Source of the DNA: Chthoniobacteraceae bacterium
GTDB taxonomy: Bacteria; Verrucomicrobiota; Verrucomicrobiia; Chthoniobacterales; Chthoniobacteraceae
Assembly (NCBI GenBank): GCA_035550335.1
Contig: DASZPK010000724.1
Span: 1-26,225, forward strand
Direction of reading: 5' to 3'
Length of the DNA stretch: 26,225 nucleotides
Part shown: one piece after another, positions 6,119-23,131 of the stretch
Layout: the number at the start of each line of letters is the position of its first letter
Numbering within the stretch: the first letter of the stretch is position 1
Program-made: the position numbers and the translations under genes
The notes under the pieces: generated by a model
Told to the model about the DNA's origin: nothing
Databases searched by the model: none
The model's input: the letters and a program-made list of their open reading frames with translations, nothing else

Positions 6119-7495
6119 ATGGGCTACCGCGTCACCGCAGGGGGTGTGGGCTACCAGTTCGCCGGCCTTGGCGAATTGCTGGGAAAGGCGTCCCCGCTCC
6201 GCTCCGGCGACCAGCTCGCGGGCATCGCGGCGGCCGGCGCTGAGGAACGCGTGGCGGCGCAACTCTGCCTCGCCGAAGTACCGCTCACGCGCTTTCTCGA
6301 CGAACCGCTCATCCCTTACGAGGAGGACGAAGTCACGCGCCTCATCCTCGACCGTCACGACCGCGCGGCGTTTGCCGCGGTCGCGGGGCTGACCGTGGGC
6401 GAATTCCGCGACTGGCTCCTGCGCTATGAGACGGACGCAGCAACGCTGGCCGCGCTCGCGCCCGGCGTCACGCCGGAGATGGCCGCCGCGGTAAGCAAGC
6501 TCATGGGCAACCAGGACCTGATCCTCGTCGCGTCGAAAACGCGCGTGATCACAAAATTCCGCAACACCCTCGGCCTGCCCGGCACGCTCTCCGTGCGCCT
6601 CCAGCCGAACCACCCGGCCGACGACCCGCGCGGAATCGTCGCCTCGATCATCGACGGCCTCATGTATGGTTGCGGCGACGCCGTGATCGGCATCAATCCC
6701 GCCACCGACAGCCCGGCCGCCTGCGCCTCGCTGCTGCAGCTCATCGACCGGATGATCTCCGATTACGAAATCCCGACGCAATCGTGCGTGCTCGCGCACG
6801 CGACCACCACGCTGCGTTGCATGGAGGCAGGCGCGCCGGTCGATCTCGTATTCCAATCCATTGCCGGCACCGAGGCGGCAAACCGCGGCTTCGGCATCGA
6901 CCTCAAACTCCTCCGCGAAGCGCGCGAGGCGGCGCTTTCATTGAAACGCGGCACGCTTGGCGACAACGTGATGTATTTCGAAACCGGCCAGGGATCGTGC
7001 CTCTCCGCAGGCGCGCACCACGGACTCGACCAGCAAACGCTCGAGGCCCGCGCTTACGCGGTGGCGCGCGAATTCCAACCGCTGCTCGTGAACACCGTGG
7101 TCGGTTTCATCGGCCCCGAATACCTTTACGATGGCAAACAGATCATCCGCGCCGGGCTCGAGGACCATTTCTGCGGCAAGCTGCTCGGCCTGCCGATGGG
7201 GTGTGACATTTGTTACACAAACCATGCCGAAGCCGACCAGGACGACATGGACACGCTCCTCACCCTGCTCGGCGTGGCGGGGTGCAATTACATCATGGGA
7301 GTGCCGGGCGCGGACGACATCATGCTCAATTACCAGTCAACCAGTTTTCACGACAGCCATTACCTGCGGCAGGCGCTGAAGTTGCGGCCCGCGCCGGAAT
7401 TCGAGGCATGGCTTGGGAAAATGAACATCATGCGCGGCGGCGTGCGGCTCGAAGCCGCCGGGGCGCGCCACGCGTTCCTCTCACATCCACCATGA
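6119..7495 (+). CDS. eutB: Ethanolamine ammonia-lyase large subunit
   Basis: KASPLRSGDQLAG, SVRLQPNHPADD, DAVIGINPA, TQSCVLAH, FQSIAGTE, YFETGQGS, NTVVGFIGPEYLYDGKQIIRAGLEDHFCGKL and DICYTNH. Confidence 0.97.
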   Translation: MGYRVTAGGVGYQFAGLGELLGKASPLRSGDQLAGIAAAGAEERVAAQLCLAEVPLTRFLDEPLIPYEEDEVTRLILDRHDRAAFAAVAGLTVGEFRDWLLRYETDAATLAALAPGVTPEMAAAVSKLMGNQDLILVASKTRVITKFRNTLGLPGTLSVRLQPNHPADDPRGIVASIIDGLMYGCGDAVIGINPATDSPAACASLLQLIDRMISDYEIPTQSCVLAHATTTLRCMEAGAPVDLVFQSIAGTEAANRGFGIDLKLLREAREAALSLKRGTLGDNVMYFETGQGSCLSAGAHHGLDQQTLEARAYAVAREFQPLLVNTVVGFIGPEYLYDGKQIIRAGLEDHFCGKLLGLPMGCDICYTNHAEADQDDMDTLLTLLGVAGCNYIMGVPGADDIMLNYQSTSFHDSHYLRQALKLRPAPEFEAWLGKMNIMRGGVRLEAAGARHAFLSHPP

Positions 7496-8397: not shown

Positions 8398-8964
8398 ATG
8401 TACATCCAAAGCGGCACAACCCCCACCATGGTGCAGGACGATTACGAGCGGTTCGTGGCCCCGATCCAGGGGCGCATGGTGGATTGCGTCTGGAGGATTG
8501 TGCGCGACCCGCACGAGGCGCAGGACGTGGTGCAGGAGGCGCTCTTGCATGTGACGCAGCGTTTCCACGAAGTGCGCAAGCACCCGAACCCGACCGCGCT
8601 GCTGCTGCGGATCTGCGCGAACAAGGCGCTCGACCATGTGCGCCGCCACAAGACCCGTCGCGACGCACTGGAGCAAATGCCCGCAAAGCAGCACGACGGC
8701 GCCACGCCCTCGCGCGCGCTCGCGTGGAACGACGACATGGCGCAGGTGCTCGATTTCATCCGCACGATTCCGGAGCGCGAGGCGGAGGCGATCACCCTCC
8801 ACGCGCTGGAGGAGATGGATTACCCGGAGGTCGCCGCCGCGATGGGCTGCGCGGAATCGACCGTGCGCGTCTGGGTCGGGCGGGCGCGCGAGCGTTTCCG
8901 CGACGCCTTCCGCAAACAACAACCCTTTTTCTCTCCGGACAACCAAACCACGCCAAAGCCATGA
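8398..8964 (+). CDS. ECF RNA polymerase sigma factor
   Basis: Region 2: VWRIVRDPHEAQDVVQEALL...LLLRICANKALDHVRR. Region 4: IPEREAEAITLHALEEMDYPEVAAAMGCAESTVRVWVGRAR. Alternative start at 8428. Confidence 0.93.
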   Translation: MYIQSGTTPTMVQDDYERFVAPIQGRMVDCVWRIVRDPHEAQDVVQEALLHVTQRFHEVRKHPNPTALLLRICANKALDHVRRHKTRRDALEQMPAKQHDGATPSRALAWNDDMAQVLDFIRTIPEREAEAITLHALEEMDYPEVAAAMGCAESTVRVWVGRARERFRDAFRKQQPFFSPDNQTTPKP

Positions 8965-11900
8965 ATACCGATGATCTCGACCAGGCGCTCCGCGGGACCC
9001 TGGGGGGCCCGGCCCCCGCGGAAGTCCACGCGGACACCCAGCGCCATTTCGACGCCCTCGCGGCCGCCCTGCGGCGGCCGGGGGGAGCGCCGGAAGCCGC
9101 GCGCCGCCCGCTGCTGCCGGATTTTTTTAAACAACCGTTTATCCTCCTCTGGGTCGCCATCGTCCCGCAAATCATCCTGCTCCTGATCTGCCTGCGCGGC
9201 TACAACCTCATGGCCGCCGATCTCACCCCGGCGCAAAACACCATGTGGTTCGCGATGATGGGATGGCTGCTGGTCATGCTCCTGGGCGAGGGCGTGGCGA
9301 TGTTTTTCCTGCGCATCCAGAAACAGCGCGTGCCGCTGGCGATGGCCCTGGCGCTGATCGCCCTCCCGGTTTGCTACCTCTGGTTCGTCATGTTCCAGAC
9401 CGAGAACATAATCCCGCAGACGTTTGCGATCTGGGTGCTGCCGCCGGGGGAACTGATTTTCTACCAGTTCGCATTCATAATGCCGGTGATCATCTACGGC
9501 ACCCTGCGGCTGGCATGCATGGATTTGCGAATAAGGCGCTCGCAGGAAATCTCGCTCACGGCCTCCTCCATCGTGGCGCCGCCGCTCATCTTTCTCGGCC
9601 TGGCTGTGGTTGGGGGACCGTTCTGGGGGTACAAAGACGCATGGATGCTGCTCATCCCGGTCGGGATCGCCTGCACGGTGGTCATGTTCGCGGGCATCAC
9701 GCGCATTTGTGTGATTTTGTTTAACAGGATGCAGCGGAGCCGCCCCGGCGTGAAATCGGCGCTGATGTTCCTGATCTGTGTCGCCGCCCCGCTCGGCGGG
9801 CTGCTGCTGAATTCCTCGATCCCGTTCCCGGTGGATTTCCAGGCATGGCATGTTTACGCCCTTGCCGCGGTGAACGGCGTGCTCCTGATGCTGCCGCGGT
9901 TCCGCCAGCCGCTGGCGCGGCGGACGGTGTGGTTCGCGCAATGCGCGCTCTTTCCGTTCACGCTCTATTTCTTCGTCGTGTTCATGCCGTATCTCCCCTT
10001 CTCGATCCCGGCGATGATTTTGATCGGGCTCGGCTCGCTCATTCTCGTGCCGAGCGTGCTTTTCCTCATCCACGGCCAGCAGTTGATCGCCGGTTACCGC
10101 GAGGAGGCCGTGTCCGGCCACCGGCGCATGGCGATGGCCATGGCGGTCCTCGCGCTGCTCATCCTCCCCGGTATTTTCACCGCGGAAACGGTGAATGACC
10201 GCATGGTGCTGAACAGCGCTCTCGATTACGTCTACAATCCCGATTACAGCGCGCCCGCCGACCGTTTCGCGGGCGATCCCGCCGCCGTGGAGCGCAGCCT
10301 CGATCACCTGCGCGATTACAAGGCGGGCGTCTATATGCCGTTCCTCTCGGATTTTTACGACTGGTATGTCTTCGGCAAGCTCGTGCTGCCCGACGAGAAG
10401 ATGAACGCGATGCACACCGCGTTTTTCGGGCGCGAACTCGCGGCGTCGCGGGGCGACCGCATGGACTGGTATGGCGGCCGGCGCAACCCGCGCGAATCCT
10501 TTTCGGAAATCCCGCAGGGCCTCGAGCGCGGCCCCTCGGGCAAGACGACCGCCGAGTGCGTGACGCTCCAGTCGCGCGCCGCCGATGGCTGCGAATTCCG
10601 CACCGTCTCGCTTGATGTGACCAACCACGGCGACTTCAACGACGAATACGTGACCGCCATTCATCTCCCCGAGGGGACGATGATTTCCTCCTTCCGCCTG
10701 AAGGTCGGCAACGAGACCGTGCCCGGGCGCATCTGCGAGAAAAAAACCGCGCTGTGGGTTTACCAGACGATCCGCGATTACCAGGATTGGCCCGACCCCG
10801 GCCTGCTCGTCTACACCGACCCGGGCTCGGTGCAATTGCGAATCTCGCCGGTCGCGCCTGGCGAGACGCGCCACGCCGAGATCGAATTCGTCTATCCCGC
10901 CGGGTTGAACCCCGACATCCGCATCGGCGACAAACCGCTCGAAAAAGAAACCGCCACCAGCTCGCTCATCGTCACGCGCACCGCGGATGGCACCGCCTCG
11001 GCGATCATCACCCCCGCGATGCTGTCGCAACTCCCCGTCGCGCCGCGCGTGCCGTATCTCCATTTCATCGTGGACCGTTCCGCGCACTCGGGCATGAGCG
11101 ACGAACAGGTGCTCGATGCGATTCATTCAGCCTCGGCGAAATTTTCCGGGGCGAAGGAATGCTCCATTACGTTTGCCAATTACGAATCCGTGACCGCGGG
11201 TGGCGGCAACACGCCGCTCCTCGCGCTCGACCGCATCGACGCCTCCGCGCTAAACGATGTAAAACGCCTCCCAGCGCGCGGCGGGTTCCTCCCGGCCCGC
11301 GCAATGAAACGCGCGCTGCTGGAATACGGCCGCGAGCTCTCCACCAACGACGCCATGCGCGGGAAATATCCCGTATTCATCCTCATCACCGATTCCACGG
11401 AAAAACCGGCCGGGCTCGACCAATTCGAAGCCTTCGCGCGGCTCGCGCCCGACACCAATTATTTCTTCACCACCGCCGATGGCGGCGCACTCCAGCCCTG
11501 GTCTTTCACAGGCGATCGCGTCTCTTTCATACCGGGCAAGGCCAATTTGCTGGTCGTGCCTGAAAACCCGGACTGGTTCGACCCCAAGCCGGTCGCGCTG
11601 CTCAAAATGGGCGATGCCGTGGCCGCCTGCCCCGTCAACCCCGACGGCGACCCGCGCGAAATTTCCTTCGACTCGCCCAATGCGGCGGCGATCATTGCGG
11701 GATCATCGGGCCCCGTGGTGATGCACGACGTTTTGTCCATCCCGCCCAGGATCGCCGTGCTCGACCACGGGGCGTTCCGCGATCTCGCCCCCACGGCAAC
11801 GATCGGCCCTGCCACGCCCTACGCGCGCGGCGTGCGCGCGTGGCAGCAATATCTCGAATGGGTTTACAACCCGTCGCTCGGCAACCAGGGGCTGGCAAAC

Positions 11901-12134
11901 GTGGTGCGCATCAGCCGCGAGAGCGGAATCCTCACCGCGGCCACCTCGATGATCGTCGTGGAGAACGACGCGCAATGGAAGCTGCTCGATATCAAGCAAA
12001 CGCAAAAGCTCAACAACAAAACCGCGCTGGAATTCACGAACACCCCCGAGCCCTCCACATGGGCGCTCATCGGCATCGGCGGCGTGGCGCTCGTCTATGC
12101 CGTGCGCCGCAAACGCAAGGCGGCGGCAAAATAA
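8961..12134 (+). CDS. Polytopic membrane protein, MSEP-CTERM-like (VIT-like domain), with a C-terminal PEP-CTERM motif, 1057 aa
   Basis: ATG at 8961 overlaps the ECF stop (ATGA). About 11 TM helices, then ALDYVYNPDY, a VIT-like EKKTALWVYQTIR...DPGLL...RISP...EIEF segment and PYLHFIVD. Ends TSMIVVENDAQ...TPEPSTWALIGIGGVALVYAVRRKRK. Confidence 0.85.
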   Translation: MNTDDLDQALRGTLGGPAPAEVHADTQRHFDALAAALRRPGGAPEAARRPLLPDFFKQPFILLWVAIVPQIILLLICLRGYNLMAADLTPAQNTMWFAMMGWLLVMLLGEGVAMFFLRIQKQRVPLAMALALIALPVCYLWFVMFQTENIIPQTFAIWVLPPGELIFYQFAFIMPVIIYGTLRLACMDLRIRRSQEISLTASSIVAPPLIFLGLAVVGGPFWGYKDAWMLLIPVGIACTVVMFAGITRICVILFNRMQRSRPGVKSALMFLICVAAPLGGLLLNSSIPFPVDFQAWHVYALAAVNGVLLMLPRFRQPLARRTVWFAQCALFPFTLYFFVVFMPYLPFSIPAMILIGLGSLILVPSVLFLIHGQQLIAGYREEAVSGHRRMAMAMAVLALLILPGIFTAETVNDRMVLNSALDYVYNPDYSAPADRFAGDPAAVERSLDHLRDYKAGVYMPFLSDFYDWYVFGKLVLPDEKMNAMHTAFFGRELAASRGDRMDWYGGRRNPRESFSEIPQGLERGPSGKTTAECVTLQSRAADGCEFRTVSLDVTNHGDFNDEYVTAIHLPEGTMISSFRLKVGNETVPGRICEKKTALWVYQTIRDYQDWPDPGLLVYTDPGSVQLRISPVAPGETRHAEIEFVYPAGLNPDIRIGDKPLEKETATSSLIVTRTADGTASAIITPAMLSQLPVAPRVPYLHFIVDRSAHSGMSDEQVLDAIHSASAKFSGAKECSITFANYESVTAGGGNTPLLALDRIDASALNDVKRLPARGGFLPARAMKRALLEYGRELSTNDAMRGKYPVFILITDSTEKPAGLDQFEAFARLAPDTNYFFTTADGGALQPWSFTGDRVSFIPGKANLLVVPENPDWFDPKPVALLKMGDAVAACPVNPDGDPREISFDSPNAAAIIAGSSGPVVMHDVLSIPPRIAVLDHGAFRDLAPTATIGPATPYARGVRAWQQYLEWVYNPSLGNQGLANVVRISRESGILTAATSMIVVENDAQWKLLDIKQTQKLNNKTALEFTNTPEPSTWALIGIGGVALVYAVRRKRKAAAK

Positions 12135-16289: not shown

Positions 16290-17900
16290 TTACGCCGGCA
16301 GCTTTTTCCGCCGCAACAAGCGTTGCATCATGAACGGAAAGAGCCAGAAGAGATTCATGAACCAAACGTACCGGATCACCACGCCGGCAATGCGGAAAAA
16401 GCGGTTATGAAAGACGAACGCGCGCGCGACCGCGTCGTTCGCGTGCGCGGCAAGGGCGGCTCCGCCCACGGCATACGACCGTGCCGCGGCGACGCCGCCC
16501 ACCGCCGCCTTCGCGCCAAGCGCACAACCGCCGAATGCAAACCAGCCCGCCGCCAATCCGCCAAACACCCATACTCCGAGCGCAAAGCCTCCCATGCTCG
16601 CCAAGCCCAATGCAAACCCGCCGAACGTCATCAACCCTGCGCCCACCCCGCCGAGGCTCACCGGCGCAATCGCGACCCCGCCAAACGCAAAGATGGCGCC
16701 AATGGCCACATCGCCCGCGGCAAACCATGCCACGACCGCCCTCCTACGCGCGACAGCCTCGCAACCGAATCGGATGTGGACCAGCGGAATTCCCAGCAAC
16801 TCGAGACGGCTTCGGTATTCGAAATGCGGGCCGGGATTTTGCTGGGCGCTTTCGCCACCGGCTGATGCCCGCGCCGCCCTCTTTCGGGCCATTTCCGCCC
16901 AGACGATCAGGGCCGCGACGGCGAACGCGTAGGTAATCATCACGCCGATCATCAACCGCGCATAGAGCACCGGGTCGTTCTTCTCCATCGGCTGCCCCAA
17001 AATCGCCAGCGACGACACAATCACCGCAAACGGGATCACAAGCATCGCCATGGCCCTGTAGAATTTCCGAATATAATCGCGGGACTCCGGCGATCGCGCC
17101 GATTCCATGCTGTACCGGTAGCTGGCATACGTGCCGAAGAACGCCAGCAGCGGCGCGAGCAGCGCCCCGGCCGCGCCCATCGATGCGACGGCCTTCGCCG
17201 ACGCGCTCCCCTTCGTCACCACCGCTCCCGCTGCGGCGGCTTTTGTCGAGACCACGAGCGCAGGCAGCGCCGCCAGCACCGCAATCGTGAACGCTCTGCC
17301 GGGCGCGCTCCTGGACAACGCGCTCTCCACGGTTTTCGCCACGCGCTCATTCAGCATCACCCGGCCACGCGAGAGGCGCTGGCGCACTGCTTCCTGGGAG
17401 AGTTCGAGCGCGGCCGCCACCTTTTCCACCGACTGGGCTTCGCGGTAATAAAGCACCATCGGCTCGCGGTAATCCGCCGGGATGGTCTCCAGCGCGCGCC
17501 ACATCAGCGCCTCCTCCTCATTGCTGACCGCCATCTCATGCGGATTCCCCCCCGGGGAACATGTCTCCGGCGGCAACTCATCCGCCCGCGCCGTCGGCAC
17601 CCGCTGCTGTGCGCGCTCGGAATTGTTCACCAGATTGCGCGCGATCCCGCACAGCCATGATTTCAGCTTTTCCGGCTCCTTGAGGTCGCCCAACTTCCGC
17701 CATGCCGCGATGAAGGTGTCCTGGGCCAGGTCCTCGCTCCGTCCAACATCCCCGCACGCGCTGTACGCGACGGCGCAGATGATGGATTGGTACCGCGAGA
17801 CAATCCGCTCAAACGCACGCCGGTCGCCCCGCAGGCAAAGCTCGACCAGGCGCGAGTCGCTCGCTGATTCATTTTCCAAAATGGTTTTCATATTCACCAT
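16290..17900 (-). CDS. ECF sigma factor fused to a C-terminal multi-TM, Gly-rich membrane domain
   Basis: Region 2: DRRAFERIVSRYQ...SEDLAQDTFIAAW...SWLCGIARN. Region 4: IPADYREPMVLYYRE...VAAALELSQEAVRQRLSRGR. Then TM helices and FEYRSRLELLGIPLVHIRFG followed by Gly/Ala-rich hydrophobic repeats. Start is 17900 or 17891. Confidence 0.9.
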   Translation of the reverse strand: MVNMKTILENESASDSRLVELCLRGDRRAFERIVSRYQSIICAVAYSACGDVGRSEDLAQDTFIAAWRKLGDLKEPEKLKSWLCGIARNLVNNSERAQQRVPTARADELPPETCSPGGNPHEMAVSNEEEALMWRALETIPADYREPMVLYYREAQSVEKVAAALELSQEAVRQRLSRGRVMLNERVAKTVESALSRSAPGRAFTIAVLAALPALVVSTKAAAAGAVVTKGSASAKAVASMGAAGALLAPLLAFFGTYASYRYSMESARSPESRDYIRKFYRAMAMLVIPFAVIVSSLAILGQPMEKNDPVLYARLMIGVMITYAFAVAALIVWAEMARKRAARASAGGESAQQNPGPHFEYRSRLELLGIPLVHIRFGCEAVARRRAVVAWFAAGDVAIGAIFAFGGVAIAPVSLGGVGAGLMTFGGFALGLASMGGFALGVWVFGGLAAGWFAFGGCALGAKAAVGGVAAARSYAVGGAALAAHANDAVARAFVFHNRFFRIAGVVIRYVWFMNLFWLFPFMMQRLLRRKKLPA

Positions 17901-17919
17901 TCCAGTGGTTGGCACTCAC

Positions 17920-17989: not shown

Positions 17990-20900
17990 TTACGCGTTCG
18001 CGCCCGCCACGTCCTTCTCCGCCGCCGGCGCGGTCCTGCCCGCGAGCTTGGCGGCGGCGGACTTGATCCAGTCGGCGTCGGGCATGGCGTAGGGGCGGAA
18101 GGTTTCGAGGACGCCTTCGCGCTCGTTGAAGAAAATTGCGCGGTGCAGCCCGAGGGTGCTCGCCTTGGGCGAATCGATGAGGCTCGCGGAATCGTTCGCG
18201 CTCATCTGGAAGAGGACGCGCATTTCAAATTCGGTGAGGGCCTTGCGGTTGATGAACCGGTTTACATTGTTAAACGTGTCGACCGTGGCGATGATGTGGA
18301 TGCCGTGGCTGGCGCCCTCGGTCATCAGCTCGTTGAATTGCGCGGAGGCGCTGGGGCCCTCCTCGGAGCTGCTCGAGAAGCTGAAGTCGTCCTCGGCGCG
18401 GAGTTTTTTGTAGCGCTGGAGGTCGTGGATGAAGAGGAAGATGGCGGGAGCGCTGGCATCGGCTTCGCCGGTTTCACTGCGGGATTTCAACTCGGCGGCG
18501 AGGGTGTTGATCGCGGCGGCGATGTCCTGCCCGCGCGCGATGGTGACCTCGTGCGGGATGGCGGCGACCACGCTCTCCATGAAATTCGCCTCGGGCGAGC
18601 CGGGCGGCGCGGCGTGGAGCAGGACGAATTTTGCCGTGCCGGCGGGGTATTGCGCGGAGAGGGCGAGCATCGACATCCCCATCATGGTGAGCGCGGATTC
18701 CTCGCGCTGGCCGATGATGAGCATGTTGCTGCCGGACTGGCGCGCGAACGCGGCCTCGGTCGGGCCCTTGATGGAATTCGGCGCGCCGAGCCATGCCTTG
18801 CCGGAATAGGGCGCGGCGGCGGGCGGGGCGTCGAGCGCGGCGATGAGGAGTTCGTTGTCGGTGATGTTCGCGGGGGCGTTGCCTTCGAACACGATGGGGC
18901 CGGGATATTTGCGGTCGTGGTGCTGGCCGGCGATGACGGTTACTTTTTCGAGCCACTGGTCGCGCTCCTCGTCGGAGAGCCACACGACCTGGAACGGGCT
19001 GTTCCCCTCAATCGCGCCGGCGGAATCGTTGTAGATGCCTTCGCCGGGGCGCGAGAGGAGGCGCGGGGCGGAGTTGTTCTCATCCATGATGAGATAGGCG
19101 TCGGCCTCGTTGCATTGCAGCGCCACGCGGATGACCATCTGGCCGAGCGTGGCGCGGGCGAGCGAATACGCGCCGCCGAGCGTCTGCGAGCCGAGCAGCA
19201 CGTGGATGCCGAAGGCGCGGCCCTGGCGCACAATGCGGTCGAACAGGAGCGAGGCGGTCTGCGCGATGATGTCGTCCTCCACAAAAAATTCCTGGAACTC
19301 GTCGATGAGCAGCAGCGAGCGGGGCATCGGCTCCGTGCCGCCTTCGCGCTTGTAGCCGGCCACATCCTGCACGCCGAGCTTGCGGAAGAGGTCGCCGCGC
19401 CGGCGCAACTCGGCATCGACGCGCTGGAGGACGCTGAGCGCGAACTCGCGGTCGCTCTCGATGGCGACGACCTTCGCGTGCGGGAGATGCTTGGTGGCGT
19501 AGCACTTGAACTCAACGCCTTTTTTGAAGTCGATGAGGTAGAATTCCACCTCGTCGGGGCTGCACCAAAGGGCGAGGTTTGTGATAATAACGTGAAACAA
19601 CGTCGATTTGCCCGAACCGGTCTTGCCGGCGAAGAGGGCGTGCTGGCGCGTGCCTTTGCCGATGGCGAGATATTGGAACTTCGTCGCGCCGGTGCGGCCT
19701 ACGGCCACTTTCAGCTCGTTCGTGGTGGAGTTGGTCCACATCTCCTCGGGTTTCGGCGCGATCTGGAGGAACGGGACTTCGACGCGGTTCGAGTCGATGC
19801 TCGCCTTGCCGATCTTGTGGCTGAGCGTCACCGCCAGCTCGGGATCGGGCGGCGTGTCGAATGCGAGCGTGGCGCCCGGTTCGCCGGAGACGCGGGCGAG
19901 CGTGTAGTTGGGGCCGGTTTTGGAGAAGCAGATGCTGCTCTTGCGCAGCTCGGCGGGCACGAAACCATCGGGGAGCGGCTGGCGCTGGTCCCAATGAATG
20001 AGGGTGAAAATGCCGCACCTCGGGCCGCTGGCGGCGATGCTCTGGAGGCGCTTCGCGGCAATCTCGCTGAAATTCGCCGGGAAATCGGCCACGACTAGGA
20101 AATGATATTTCTCCGCCACGCTGCCGGCCTGCTCGTTGTATTCGGTGATCGTGGCGTATTCGTTGCGGAGATACATCTGGATCACTTTTTCGATGTGCTC
20201 GCTCAATTCGGCGAGGCGCTCCTCGATCTGGTCGCGCTGGGTCCAGATGCGGCGGTTGATGATGCTCTCCTCGTAATCGGAGAGGTGCATCAGGCCCGCG
20301 AAACTCTCGCCGAGGCCCACGGGATCAATGATGGTGAAGCTCAATTTCCCCGGCGGCGTGGTCGCGAGCAGCCGGAGGATGATGTTGTTTAAAATGCCGG
20401 TGACTTCGCCGCCTCCCGACTCGTTCGTCTCGAATAGCACGGAGCCCTGGTCGGGATAGGTGATCGCGAGCGGTAGGGAAATTTGCGCGGGGCCGGGCAA
20501 CGCGAGACGCGGGTCTTTCGGCAGGCCGCCGGGTTGCTTGGCGAGATCGACATCGAGGTGCGCGAATTTCGTTGCGGGCGTGAACTCGGTGGCGGGCTTC
20601 CATGTTTCCACAAGCTGCTGGTCCCATGCGGGGAACATCACCTTCGCGGAAGCGTTCATCTCGTCGAGCGCGGCGTAGAGCGGTGTGATCTCCTTTTTCC
20701 AATCGGCGGTGGCCTCGTCCCACTTCGTTTTTTCCTCGGCGGCGACGGCGGCGGCCTCGGTGTTGTAGGTGGCGGTGTATTGCTCCTTGAGCGCGAGCGC
20801 CTCGGTGGTGTAGCGGCCAAGCTTGCGCTCGCGGGAGGCCTTCAATTCGTCGAGCTTGCGCCCGAGGATCTGGTCGATCTTCGCCGTGATGCGCGGGGGC

Positions 20901-21913
20901 TGGACTTCCATTTTGCGGCGGATGCGCGTTTCGTATTCGCCCTCGATCTGGTTCGCACGGCCCCACTGCTGCTGCAATTCCGCGAGCGTGCGGTCGTGCT
21001 CGGCCTGGATGCGCGCGCGGTCCTGCTCGAGCGAGCCCGAGGCGCTCGCGACGGCGGCGGTGCCCGTGACCATGATCGCGCGAGCGGTGACGATGGAATT
21101 CGCCACCTGCGTGCCGACCGGTTTCGCTTTTTTCAACCCGGACGAATAAACCGCAAAGAGCCCCACCCACAACGCGAACGTGACCGCCCCGCCGATCGGA
21201 ATCCCGAGCGGCGAATGCTGCATGGCAAACCAGAGCCCCGCCCCGGGCAGGAGCGCGAGGAACAACAATACCGGCAACGGCATGCTGCGGAAAAACTTCG
21301 GGAGCGGGAATTCCTCGAACACCGCGAGGTGTTGCTCGGCCTCGCGGAAATGATTGGCAAGATCGTTGAAATGCTCGGGCGAGACCGCGGCCTTGCGGCG
21401 CAGCATGCGCTTGAGCGCGCCGTAGCCGGAGAGGGCCTTGCGCGCGCGCAGCTCGAGGTCCTTGAGCGTCTGCTTGTTCACGTCGAGCTTCGTCGTGAAA
21501 TTGGTGAACGACCCCTCGGCCTTCTCCATCTCGGTTTTCAATTTCCGCTCGGCGAGGAAATTTTTCATCTGGAGGTCGCCCATCCAGCGCTGCTTCACCT
21601 CCTTCGCTTTCATCGGGAGGTTGCGCAGGGAATTGGCGCGGAATTTTTCCACGCGCGCGCGCCGCGTCTCGTAGACGCCCTTCACGTGCTTGCGCGTGTT
21701 TTCATACGCCTCCTCCATCTGCGAGGTGTATTGCTGGAGGCCCGACTCCGTGTGGCGGATCGCATCCTGGCTCTTGCGCGTGGTGGAATAACGGCGCGCG
21801 CTGAGTTCCTGCCCGATCTGCTCCTCGCGCTTCACGAATTTCGCGACGGTCTGCTTGAGGTTCGCGAGGAGATCGAGGCTCCGGTTGAGTCGCAGATCGG
21901 CCCCCTTACTCAC
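17990..21913 (-). CDS. Membrane-anchored FtsK/SpoIIIE-family ATPase (EssC/EccC-like), 1307 aa
   Basis: N-terminal coiled coil, 2 TM helices, then another coiled coil. One intact ATPase domain with Walker A GKTGSGKS (19604-19627), YLIDFKKG, Walker B LLLIDEFQ and QGRAFGIH. It is flanked by two degenerate FtsK-like domains. GTG start overlaps the upstream stop by 8 bp. Confidence 0.92.
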   Translation of the reverse strand: MSKGADLRLNRSLDLLANLKQTVAKFVKREEQIGQELSARRYSTTRKSQDAIRHTESGLQQYTSQMEEAYENTRKHVKGVYETRRARVEKFRANSLRNLPMKAKEVKQRWMGDLQMKNFLAERKLKTEMEKAEGSFTNFTTKLDVNKQTLKDLELRARKALSGYGALKRMLRRKAAVSPEHFNDLANHFREAEQHLAVFEEFPLPKFFRSMPLPVLLFLALLPGAGLWFAMQHSPLGIPIGGAVTFALWVGLFAVYSSGLKKAKPVGTQVANSIVTARAIMVTGTAAVASASGSLEQDRARIQAEHDRTLAELQQQWGRANQIEGEYETRIRRKMEVQPPRITAKIDQILGRKLDELKASRERKLGRYTTEALALKEQYTATYNTEAAAVAAEEKTKWDEATADWKKEITPLYAALDEMNASAKVMFPAWDQQLVETWKPATEFTPATKFAHLDVDLAKQPGGLPKDPRLALPGPAQISLPLAITYPDQGSVLFETNESGGGEVTGILNNIILRLLATTPPGKLSFTIIDPVGLGESFAGLMHLSDYEESIINRRIWTQRDQIEERLAELSEHIEKVIQMYLRNEYATITEYNEQAGSVAEKYHFLVVADFPANFSEIAAKRLQSIAASGPRCGIFTLIHWDQRQPLPDGFVPAELRKSSICFSKTGPNYTLARVSGEPGATLAFDTPPDPELAVTLSHKIGKASIDSNRVEVPFLQIAPKPEEMWTNSTTNELKVAVGRTGATKFQYLAIGKGTRQHALFAGKTGSGKSTLFHVIITNLALWCSPDEVEFYLIDFKKGVEFKCYATKHLPHAKVVAIESDREFALSVLQRVDAELRRRGDLFRKLGVQDVAGYKREGGTEPMPRSLLLIDEFQEFFVEDDIIAQTASLLFDRIVRQGRAFGIHVLLGSQTLGGAYSLARATLGQMVIRVALQCNEADAYLIMDENNSAPRLLSRPGEGIYNDSAGAIEGNSPFQVVWLSDEERDQWLEKVTVIAGQHHDRKYPGPIVFEGNAPANITDNELLIAALDAPPAAAPYSGKAWLGAPNSIKGPTEAAFARQSGSNMLIIGQREESALTMMGMSMLALSAQYPAGTAKFVLLHAAPPGSPEANFMESVVAAIPHEVTIARGQDIAAAINTLAAELKSRSETGEADASAPAIFLFIHDLQRYKKLRAEDDFSFSSSSEEGPSASAQFNELMTEGASHGIHIIATVDTFNNVNRFINRKALTEFEMRVLFQMSANDSASLIDSPKASTLGLHRAIFFNEREGVLETFRPYAMPDADWIKSAAAKLAGRTAPAAEKDVAGANA

Positions 21914-22118
21914 AGTCGCTCCTCACTTTTTTCAAAAGGCCGTCGAGGTCCTGCATCACGCCCGCGGTGCGCGCGGCGTTCGCGGGGAGGTCCTCCAAAA
22001 ATTTGTGCGCGAACTCCCGGCTCTTGACGTCGTTCCAGAACGCCTTCACCTGGTCCCATTCGAACATGAGCTCCTTCACCGCCTGCTCCAAATTGCTTGC
22101 GCTTGCTTTTACACTCAT
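21906..22118 (-). CDS. Small WXG100-like protein (70 aa, W-N-D motif)
   Basis: C-terminal 70 aa of ORF 21906..22550, started at ATG 22118, which overlaps the upstream TGA (ATGA). LMFEWDQVKAFWNDVKSREFAHKF aligns without gaps to the WXG100 core of 22859..23131. Confidence 0.8.
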   Translation of the reverse strand: MSVKASASNLEQAVKELMFEWDQVKAFWNDVKSREFAHKFLEDLPANAARTAGVMQDLDGLLKKVRSDCE

Positions 22119-22705
22119 AAAGTTTCGTTTCCAGCCGGTTGCGATGCCGCTTCGGCGGTTTGGGCGGGTTGCCCCGCTTCGGGGGTTGTGGATGCCGGGA
22201 CGTCCGCGGGGAGCGCGGCATCTTCGGGGGGCGGGCCTTGCGTGTAGGCCGCGAGCGTGCGCTGCAGGGCCACGATATAGGCGATCGCGCGCGGCATGTC
22301 GTCGTCGAGGAAACTTTTCATCCCCTCCATGCGCTTGAGGATCGGGTCGGCGGCGCTGTCGAAATTCTGCGACCATTGTTTCACCAGGCGGAGTTTGCCC
22401 TGCGCCTCGCCGAGCGCGCGCTTCGCCCTTTCTAGCGCCTGGCGGCGGGTCATGAGGGCGGTCTCGTTGTTCTTCACGAGGCGGGCGCTCATGTAATCCT
22501 GCTGGAGCTGGTCGACCTTGCGGGAGATTTTGCGGATTTCGTTTTCCCAATGCACCACGCGGTCATGCTGGAGCCACATGCGGGTCGTGCGCGCCTCGTC
22601 GTTGGCATCGGCCACCGAGCGGCGGGCCTTGGTGAGAAAAATCACCAGCGCCGCCCGGATCATGTCGAGCGCGTCGAGGGAAGTAACTTTGGCCTGGTTG
22701 CCCAT
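22115..22705 (-). CDS. Helical coiled-coil protein, probable extended WXG100-like paralogue (196 aa)
   Basis: Amphipathic helices throughout. N- and C-terminal hydrophobic spacing matches the 90-aa WXG100 protein. Low-complexity Pro/Ala tail. Confidence 0.82.
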   Translation of the reverse strand: MGNQAKVTSLDALDMIRAALVIFLTKARRSVADANDEARTTRMWLQHDRVVHWENEIRKISRKVDQLQQDYMSARLVKNNETALMTRRQALERAKRALGEAQGKLRLVKQWSQNFDSAADPILKRMEGMKSFLDDDMPRAIAYIVALQRTLAAYTQGPPPEDAALPADVPASTTPEAGQPAQTAEAASQPAGNETL

Positions 22706-22858: not shown

Positions 22859-23131
22859 TTAACGCTGCTCCAGGTATTGCTCGATGCGCTGCGCTTTGCG
22901 GAGCAGGTAGGGCGTCTGCTTTTCGGAGATCTCGACGAATTTTTTGAGCACCTTCATCGTGGTGATGAACTCCTCGCCGAATTTCGCGCTGTCCTGGTCC
23001 TGCCACGTCGCGCCGAGGGCGGCGAACCGCGCCTGGAGCGAGGCCGCCTTGGCCTGCACGTCCTCGTTGAAGCGTTTCAATTCCGAGGCAAACTTGCGGA
23101 CCTCCTCGGGGTCCATGATCGCTTGAGCCAT
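22859..23131 (-). CDS. WXG100/ESAT-6-like protein (90 aa, W-Q-D variant)
   Basis: About 90 aa helix-turn-helix. N-terminal IMDPEEVRKFASELKRF, central LGATWQDQDSAKF, C-terminal YLLRKAQRIEQYL. Next to an FtsK ATPase. Confidence 0.88.
   Translation of the reverse strand: MAQAIMDPEEVRKFASELKRFNEDVQAKAASLQARFAALGATWQDQDSAKFGEEFITTMKVLKKFVEISEKQTPYLLRKAQRIEQYLEQR

Follow-up and report, generated by a model that had tools for sequence, protein, structure and literature searches.

Is a large FtsK-type ATPase that is encoded beside a WXG100 gene in a verrucomicrobial genome part of a type VII secretion system, a DNA translocase, or something different from both? The question is raised by a stretch of 26,225 nucleotides (nt) from a Chthoniobacteraceae bacterium (assembly GCA_035550335.1, contig DASZPK010000724.1), here called the window, in which the gene at 17990..21913 on the minus strand encodes a protein of 1307 amino acids (aa). 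This protein belongs to the solo-WXG-linked class of three-module YueA/EssC-like ATPases (Zhang 2012; Bell 2024), and within this class it is a membrane-anchored subtype that differs from the described soluble ones. The lineage and the three-module design are already in the literature (2012, 2024). By analogy with EccC and EssC, the protein is probably the motor ATPase of a stand-alone, minimal WXG100/FtsK-type cassette.

A helical N-terminus, a two-helix membrane hairpin, a second helical stretch and three FtsK-fold modules follow each other along the polypeptide. The corresponding features, all on the minus strand (-) and numbered by window position, are:

17990..21913 (-), whole ATPase gene, an intact open reading frame (ORF) of 1307 aa; homologues align over 98-100% of it
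21314..21913 (-), N-terminal helical region, aa 1-200, with heptad periodicity, few Pro and Gly and neither a Pfam domain nor FHA
21134..21286 (-), two-helix membrane hairpin, aa ~210-260, from hydropathy, with K/R on each outer flank
20594..21118 (-), second helical region, aa 266-440, with weak coiled-coil character in a crude test
19769..20593 (-), module 1 (d1), aa 441-715, predicted FtsK/EccC-type fold without a P-loop, from AlphaFold2 (AF2), VIA-align (VIA) and hhalign
18914..19768 (-), module 2 (d2), aa 716-1000, Pfam FtsK_SpoIIIE at 1.9e-32 and VIA Z 31.4 against the FtsK motor
19604..19627 (-), Walker A GKTGSGKS, aa 763-770, with the Walker A lysine at aa 769, from motif position, invariant in relatives
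19292..19315 (-), Walker B LLLIDEFQ, aa 867-874, from motif position, invariant in relatives
18029..18823 (-), module 3 (d3), aa 1031-1295, predicted dead FtsK/EccC-type fold, from hhalign, VIA and HH

FtsK_SpoIIIE (aa 729-907) is the only Pfam family found in the protein; no FHA domain was found by Pfam, as the first-pass annotation, made from the sequence alone, had already noted. All motifs cited in that annotation are present in this reading frame and in the order in which it gave them, and the protein contains exactly one Walker A. An AF2 model of aa 441-1307, calculated from a 59-row alignment (58 diverse homologues aligned), has a mean predicted local distance difference test (pLDDT) value of 89.6 and a predicted template modelling (pTM) score of 0.80, and it shows three alpha/beta modules spanning aa 441-1295. 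Module 1 modelled alone reaches a pLDDT of 93.5. Both models cover the ATPase part, beyond the N-terminal 440 residues. The top Foldseek match of the larger model is the cytoplasmic part of Thermomonospora curvata EccC with its three ATPase domains (4nh0, E 1.8e-31, 904 columns), and modules 2 and 3 jointly match D2-D3 of EssC (4lya, Z 28.2, 493 residues, VIA-align).

Judged from its motifs, module 2 appears to be the sole catalytic module of the three. It had been described as intact, and GKTGSGKS, IDEFQ (aa 870) and QGRAFGIH (aa 897) were indeed found; 59 of 59 diverse relatives invariably keep Walker A (G[KR]TGSGKS) and Walker B (hhhhDEFQ). FtsK motor structures superpose on this module with a root mean square deviation (rmsd) of 2.6 Å over 278 residues, and TcpA was matched as well. 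Over the FtsK/SpoIIIE motor entries 2IUS, 2IUT and 6T8B the values are Z 30-31 and rmsd 2.5-2.8 Å for ~278 residues at 24-25% identity. FtsK and SpoIIIE, however, have a single motor and a gamma domain, whereas the window protein has three modules, no gamma domain according to Pfam, and a different membrane part. A single Walker A is present in 256 of the 265 full-length relatives. Mean identity to the window protein, taken over 59 relatives, is 47% for d1, 68% for d2 and 44% for d3. Strong purifying selection acts on the ATPase class.

Modules 1 and 3 are predicted to be genuine but dead FtsK/EccC-type folds, since AF2 models, fold searches and profile comparisons agree. Domain 1 had been read as lacking Walker A while keeping FtsK-like remnants, and domain 3 as degenerate. 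The motifs in question were located at aa 515, 605 and 629 and at aa 1063, 1160 and 1199, respectively, and structure prediction bears out an FtsK-type fold in both cases. At the Walker B position module 1 carries hhhhA[DN]FP, and its SGxRCG is invariant among the 59 relatives. In module 3 the P-loop is replaced by GQREES and Walker B by hhhhHGL/HDL, of which hhhhHGL is kept in relatives. A Walker A in d1 or d3 was found in none of the 59 diverse relatives. The degeneracy of both modules thus looks old and selected, as far as motif conservation tells.

Searching PDB sequences with the module 1 profile gave matches at chance level alone (best E 0.046, to a dehydrosqualene synthase). Therefore, its fold is argued from structure and profile-profile comparison. 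By VIA, module 1 fits D2 of EssC best (Z 22.0, rmsd 2.6 Å, 232 residues), followed by D2 of EccC (Z 20.5) and by TcpA and FtsK (Z 19-20.6); the DUF domains of EccC5, ESX-3 and YukB are weaker matches (Z 12-14; EccC5 DUF Z 13.7). The d1 profile also matches a true FtsK at 4.8e-8. Comparing slices of the family alignment with each other, hhalign gave a probability of 97.7% (E 1.5e-12) for d3 against d2 and of 96.2% (E 2.8e-9) for d1 against d3. Module 3 matches EccC D3/D2 with HH E values of 2e-8 to 4e-7 and superposes on the C-terminal ATPase domain in 6j17 (Z 22.0, rmsd 3.5 Å, 237 residues, VIA).

The membrane anchor consists of hydrophobic helices at aa ~210-232 and 235-260, connected by a loop of few residues. 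A hydrophobic segment is present in 262 of the 265 full-length relatives, at a median position of 213 and ~500 residues before Walker A; hydropathy and this conservation confirm the tight two-helix hairpin that had been proposed to follow a helical N-terminus. The proposal of coiled coils on both sides of the anchor holds along the sequence, but not across the membrane: because the anchor is a hairpin, both helical regions lie on the same face, presumably the cytoplasmic one. Their coiled-coil character is modest, being better supported for aa 1-200 (crude heptad score z=3.4) than for aa 266-440 (z=1.6). The longest runs free of Pro and Gly are 29 and 44 residues, and helix breakers are frequent in the helical regions. 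The long stalk proposed in the first-pass annotation is therefore conjectural, as is the different allosteric wiring proposed with it. An ESM Atlas search with aa 1-440 matched unnamed clusters only.

The ATPase gene is the last of four co-directional genes, which begin with WXG100 and continue with the following small genes:

22859..23131 (-), 90-aa WXG100 protein, first gene of the operon, Pfam WXG100 at 36.8 bits (cut-off 27.3)
22115..22705 (-), 196-aa helical protein of no Pfam family, present at 69 of 80 related loci
21906..22118 (-), 70-aa WXG-like helical protein (FWND) without a Pfam hit, present at 72 of 80 related loci

The last two junctions of the operon overlap by 4 and 8 nt; at the latter, the GTG start of the ATPase gene overlaps the stop of the 70-aa gene. 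In the 80 related loci from species genomes that were used for all neighbourhood counts, each of the three small genes is present 67-72 times, and the same four-gene order occurs in 63 of the 72 loci where any small gene was found. No other conserved neighbour was found in more than 5 of these 80 loci. The WXG100 protein of the operon is the sole WXG100 match in the source genome, which is 83% complete.

To which class does this ATPase belong? A tblastn search of plasmids with module 2 gave nearest relatives at 33-41% identity, with EccC at 29-31%. The nearest ones are 'FtsK/SpoIIIE domain' proteins of Rhodococcus, Caballeronia, Deinococcus and Helicobacter, all of which have a d1-d2-d3 arrangement with one central Walker A. 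The d1 profile recognises the proteins from Rhodococcus (E 2.1e-37), Caballeronia (5.5e-33), Deinococcus (2.4e-22) and Helicobacter (9.1e-15), which represent four phyla other than that of the window protein. The members from Caballeronia, Rhodococcus and Deinococcus are recognised by the module 3 profile too; in the Helicobacter protein, sequence comparison hardly picks up the third module, and only the d1 profile gives a clear match there. The membrane hairpin is absent in the three relatives checked by hydropathy, those of Rhodococcus, Caballeronia and Helicobacter. An annotated WXG100 gene adjoins the Caballeronia ATPase, and small unnamed genes adjoin the other plasmid relatives.

The surroundings of these plasmid genes are varied. 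In Caballeronia, VWA, WXG100 and three unnamed genes precede the ATPase, and CARF, VWA, PP2C, kinase and AAA genes follow it. The plasmid of Helicobacter sp. NHP19-012 (L083:4158-8560) encodes an 89-aa protein, an HNH endonuclease, SMI1/KNR4, a 77-aa protein and an 823-aa ATPase with three modules and no membrane helices, in a locus that resembles a toxin-immunity cassette. On a plasmid of Rhodococcus sp. AH-ZY2 (L082:4721-8689) a 1322-aa member, whose N-terminus is TerD-like by eye, has TerD and DUF475 genes around it and two small genes, of 73 and 87 aa, behind it; through this locus the ATPase class would be connected with Ter stress-response loci in an actinobacterium. The 947-aa 'DNA translocase FtsK' on a plasmid of Deinococcus actinosclerus (L088:3993-7382) is a d1-d2-d3 member as well (d3 E 9.1e-30), and two hypothetical genes of ~90 aa come after it.

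A three-module class with an active middle module was described by Zhang et al. 2012 in Biol Direct, where verrucomicrobia are named (Table 1, footnote 6; PMC3482391). Bell et al. 2024 in eLife reported EssC homologues linked to CoCoNuT systems. Of their three ATPase domains the central one alone is active; a coiled coil exceeding 200 residues forms the N-terminus, membrane helices are lacking, and two WXG100 genes accompany the ATPase (PMC11090510). They link the class to TerY-P triads and Type III-A CoCoNuT systems, think it likely that forms lacking membrane helices work by something other than classical secretion, and refer to Anantharaman et al. 2012, as cited in their text, for stand-alone versions (PMC11090510). 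The window protein shares with this class the three FtsK-fold modules with an active central one, the helical N-terminal region and the adjacent WXG100 gene or genes, one with and one without a clear WxG motif. It differs in two respects. The CoCoNuT-linked forms and the examined plasmid relatives lack membrane helices, whereas here a hairpin lies inside the helical N-terminal region; since this hairpin at aa 210-260 is kept in nearly all full-length relatives, we regard the protein as a different, membrane-anchored subtype. Furthermore, no VWA, kinase, phosphatase, nuclease or Ter neighbours are conserved here, in contrast to the CoCoNuT and plasmid forms.

Relatives are encoded in at least 590 species genomes, nearly all labelled Verrucomicrobiota. 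The carriers include metagenome-assembled genomes of Prosthecobacter as well as Verrucomicrobium sp. BvORR106. With the family-specific d1 profile, 43 of 267 good genomes of the class and 33 of 156 genera were positive in even samples, which is about one genome in six; nearly all of the profile matches in the class sample lie within open frames of ~1300 aa. In an even sample across the phylum the full-length protein was found at E <= 1e-100 in 7 of 293 good genomes. Given these counts, the cassette is widespread but patchy and is not kept throughout the phylum. Three family ATPase matches in other genomes contain one in-frame TGA each (G289:C21:54473-57760, G169:C36:7414-10668 and G456:C66:8428-9159), which could reflect a sequencing error, a pseudogene or recoding. 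ATPases of 62-76% identity also occur on contigs labelled outside Verrucomicrobiota (L001, L017, L021, L027, L047, L050, L058, L077), namely as Bacteroidetes, Acidobacteriota genera, Bifidobacterium, Klebsiella, Omnitrophota or Gemmatimonadales. These labels probably reflect mis-binned or mislabelled metagenome-assembled genomes rather than gene transfers.

The main rival to an exporting motor is modelled on the CoCoNuT/TerY-P-linked homologues. The ATPase would then be a conflict or defence motor at the cytoplasmic face that remodels or assembles WXG-like helical proteins or acts together with nucleases, with the hairpin serving as a tether only. The closest plasmid relatives, which have no membrane helices and adjoin VWA, CARF, PP2C, kinase and AAA genes (Caballeronia), HNH and SMI1/KNR4 (Helicobacter) or TerD (Rhodococcus), fit this explanation, as do the mechanism favoured by Bell et al. 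for helix-less forms (PMC11090510) and the patchy distribution in class and phylum. However, the hairpin is retained almost universally, the 80 loci share no neighbouring gene for defence, a toxin or immunity, and the conservation, above all that of d2, is high for an accessory conflict gene. Hence, we consider this explanation rather unlikely.

Much less probable still is that the protein is an ordinary EccC/EssC orthologue and the locus a canonical type VII secretion system (T7SS) of type a or b. Its best named matches are indeed the EccCa, EccCb and EssC models and the EccC, EssC and YukB structures. EccC and EssC also have WXG100 partner genes, as in the operon described here, and two membrane helices ahead of tandem FtsK-fold modules, with a degenerate module before the catalytic one; a non-catalytic C-terminal module is shared with EssC. 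However, the scores against NCBIfam TIGR03924, TIGR03925 and TIGR03928 are 114.5, 95.2 and 92.2 bits and thus far below the curated cut-offs of 509, 347 and 778. EccC and EssC have four modules and two or three Walker A motifs, in contrast to three modules and one Walker A here; three were counted in each of two plasmid EccC proteins and two in a Brevibacillus EssC-like protein. Instead of a short N-terminus or FHA domains, and a short stalk, the window protein has ~200 helical residues before and ~170 after the membrane helices. The EccC/EssC partners EccB/D/E, MycP, EssA/B, EsaA and YukD were not found here; in the 83%-complete genome the EccB, YukC/EssB and YukD families (PF05108, PF10140, PF08817) gave no match.

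Close structures in this group are those of EccC (T. curvata 4NH0/4N1A; EccC5 7NP7/7B9S/8RIN), of B. subtilis YukB (9QKS) and of Geobacillus thermodenitrificans EssC (4LYA/5FV0). Module 1 occupies the DUF position but in structure resembles D2 (Z 20-22) more than DUF (Z 12-14), and the d1 profile gave no match in the DUF regions of EccC/EssC. By HH it is weakly nearest to D1 (E 2.4e-4). By sequence, d2 is nearest to D1 (HH E 1e-17 to 1e-20, against 1e-12 to 1e-14 for D2) and d3 to D3 or D2. In a quick maximum-likelihood tree of 56 domain sequences, with only three T7SS ATPases and long branches, d1, d2, d3, DUF, D1, D2, D3 and FtsK each form a clade of their own, and the d1, d2 and d3 clades each span five phyla.

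The lineage is thus separate from EccC/EssC, as the first-pass annotation had proposed from other arguments: it has three modules, scores far under the cut-offs and module clades of its own. Two of those arguments are not supported. EccC is composed of four globular domains: D1-D3 are preceded by an N-terminal DUF, whose ATPase fold is degenerate and binds no ATP, and the degeneracy of DUF is common to T7SSa and T7SSb (bioRxiv 10.1101/2024.01.26.577026). The membrane-proximal domain, which had been taken as the catalytic one in EccC/EssC, is therefore degenerate in the literature, and the order of a dead module followed by a live one, which had been called unusual, is ordinary. In this sense the window protein follows the standard DUF-D1 order; the module count does not, since all T7SSa-j ATPases have four NTPase domains (PMC11217815). 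Likewise, the lack of FHA domains, which had been regarded as a distinguishing feature, is ordinary, as they are absent in T7SS types a, c, g and h (PMC11217815).

Least probable of all is a role in chromosome segregation or conjugation as a DNA translocase like FtsK/SpoIIIE/TraB/TcpA: FtsK motors are the best structural match of module 2, TcpA is matched too and several source annotations name relatives 'DNA segregation ATPase', but the genome encodes a bona fide FtsK elsewhere (contig C753, 215 bits), an FtsK gamma domain is missing from the Pfam results, relaxase or conjugation genes are neither among the scanned neighbours nor conserved nearby in the 80 loci, and the linkage to WXG100-type genes is fixed.

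If the protein is the motor of a minimal WXG100/FtsK-type cassette, as we favour, analogy with EccC and EssC suggests how it may work. The ATPase would assemble into stacked rings of six subunits on the inside of the cytoplasmic membrane, and all ATP hydrolysis would come from module 2. Module 1, in the DUF position, may serve as a structural or coupling ring, and the C-terminal module 3 as a docking site for the WXG100-type partners. These would be moved across the cytoplasmic membrane or handled at it, and no EccB/D/E or EssA/B/EsaA partner would take part. A WxG protein together with an FtsK protein has been described as the minimal type VII set in H. pylori, with a pair of the HP0062/HP0066 type (PMC4978471).

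Several points weigh against an exporting cassette. Soluble relatives without membrane helices occur in apparent conflict or defence contexts, so that secretion cannot be taken for granted. In the presumably diderm host, no outer-membrane component is linked to the cassette. A single long stalk, if made by the flanking helical regions, would hold the rings at a distance from the membrane that is strange in a translocon. In addition, the domain tree leaves DUF, D2, D3, d1 and d3 in an open polytomy, so the descent of the modules is ambiguous.

With regard to the surroundings of the operon, an upstream tetratricopeptide repeat (TPR) gene and downstream genes for an extracytoplasmic function (ECF) sigma factor and an AhpC-like protein were rejected as parts of the cassette, as they are not conserved neighbours in the 80 loci. 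The ECF-type sigma factor, directly downstream of the ATPase gene, has regions 2 and 4 in its first 190 aa and a C-terminal extension of ~350 aa, and it is a neighbour in 4 of 80 loci. PADLOC matches (SspH, mad8, HerA) were rejected as signs of a defence system since they cover only the generic FtsK module. A scan for promoters and terminators gave nothing above shuffles. The sigma factor gene and two further genes of the window are:

16290-17915 (-), ECF-type sigma factor
8484-12134 (+), 1216-aa ORF that includes a VIT domain and a PEP-CTERM tail
6119-7495 (+), ethanolamine ammonia-lyase large subunit EutB (Pfam E 2.5e-218)

A bolder proposal goes beyond the motor of a minimal cassette. The membrane-anchored subtype of the Planctomycetes-Verrucomicrobia-Chlamydiae (PVC) bacteria may be a self-sufficient single-protein translocon that uses no other type VII component. 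The 12 membrane helices of a hexamer would move WXG100-type helical proteins into the diderm periplasm, while the dead but strongly conserved module 1 and the flanking helical regions would constitute a new gating or coupling device. We put this forward as a speculative and rather doubtful extension. If true, no simpler type VII-like machine would be known, and none would have been shown before to work in a two-membrane, non-mycolate bacterium. If the cassette exports proteins at all, it would represent a minimal type VII-like system in diderm bacteria, and the ATPase class would provide a clean model for the cooperation of one live and two dead FtsK modules.

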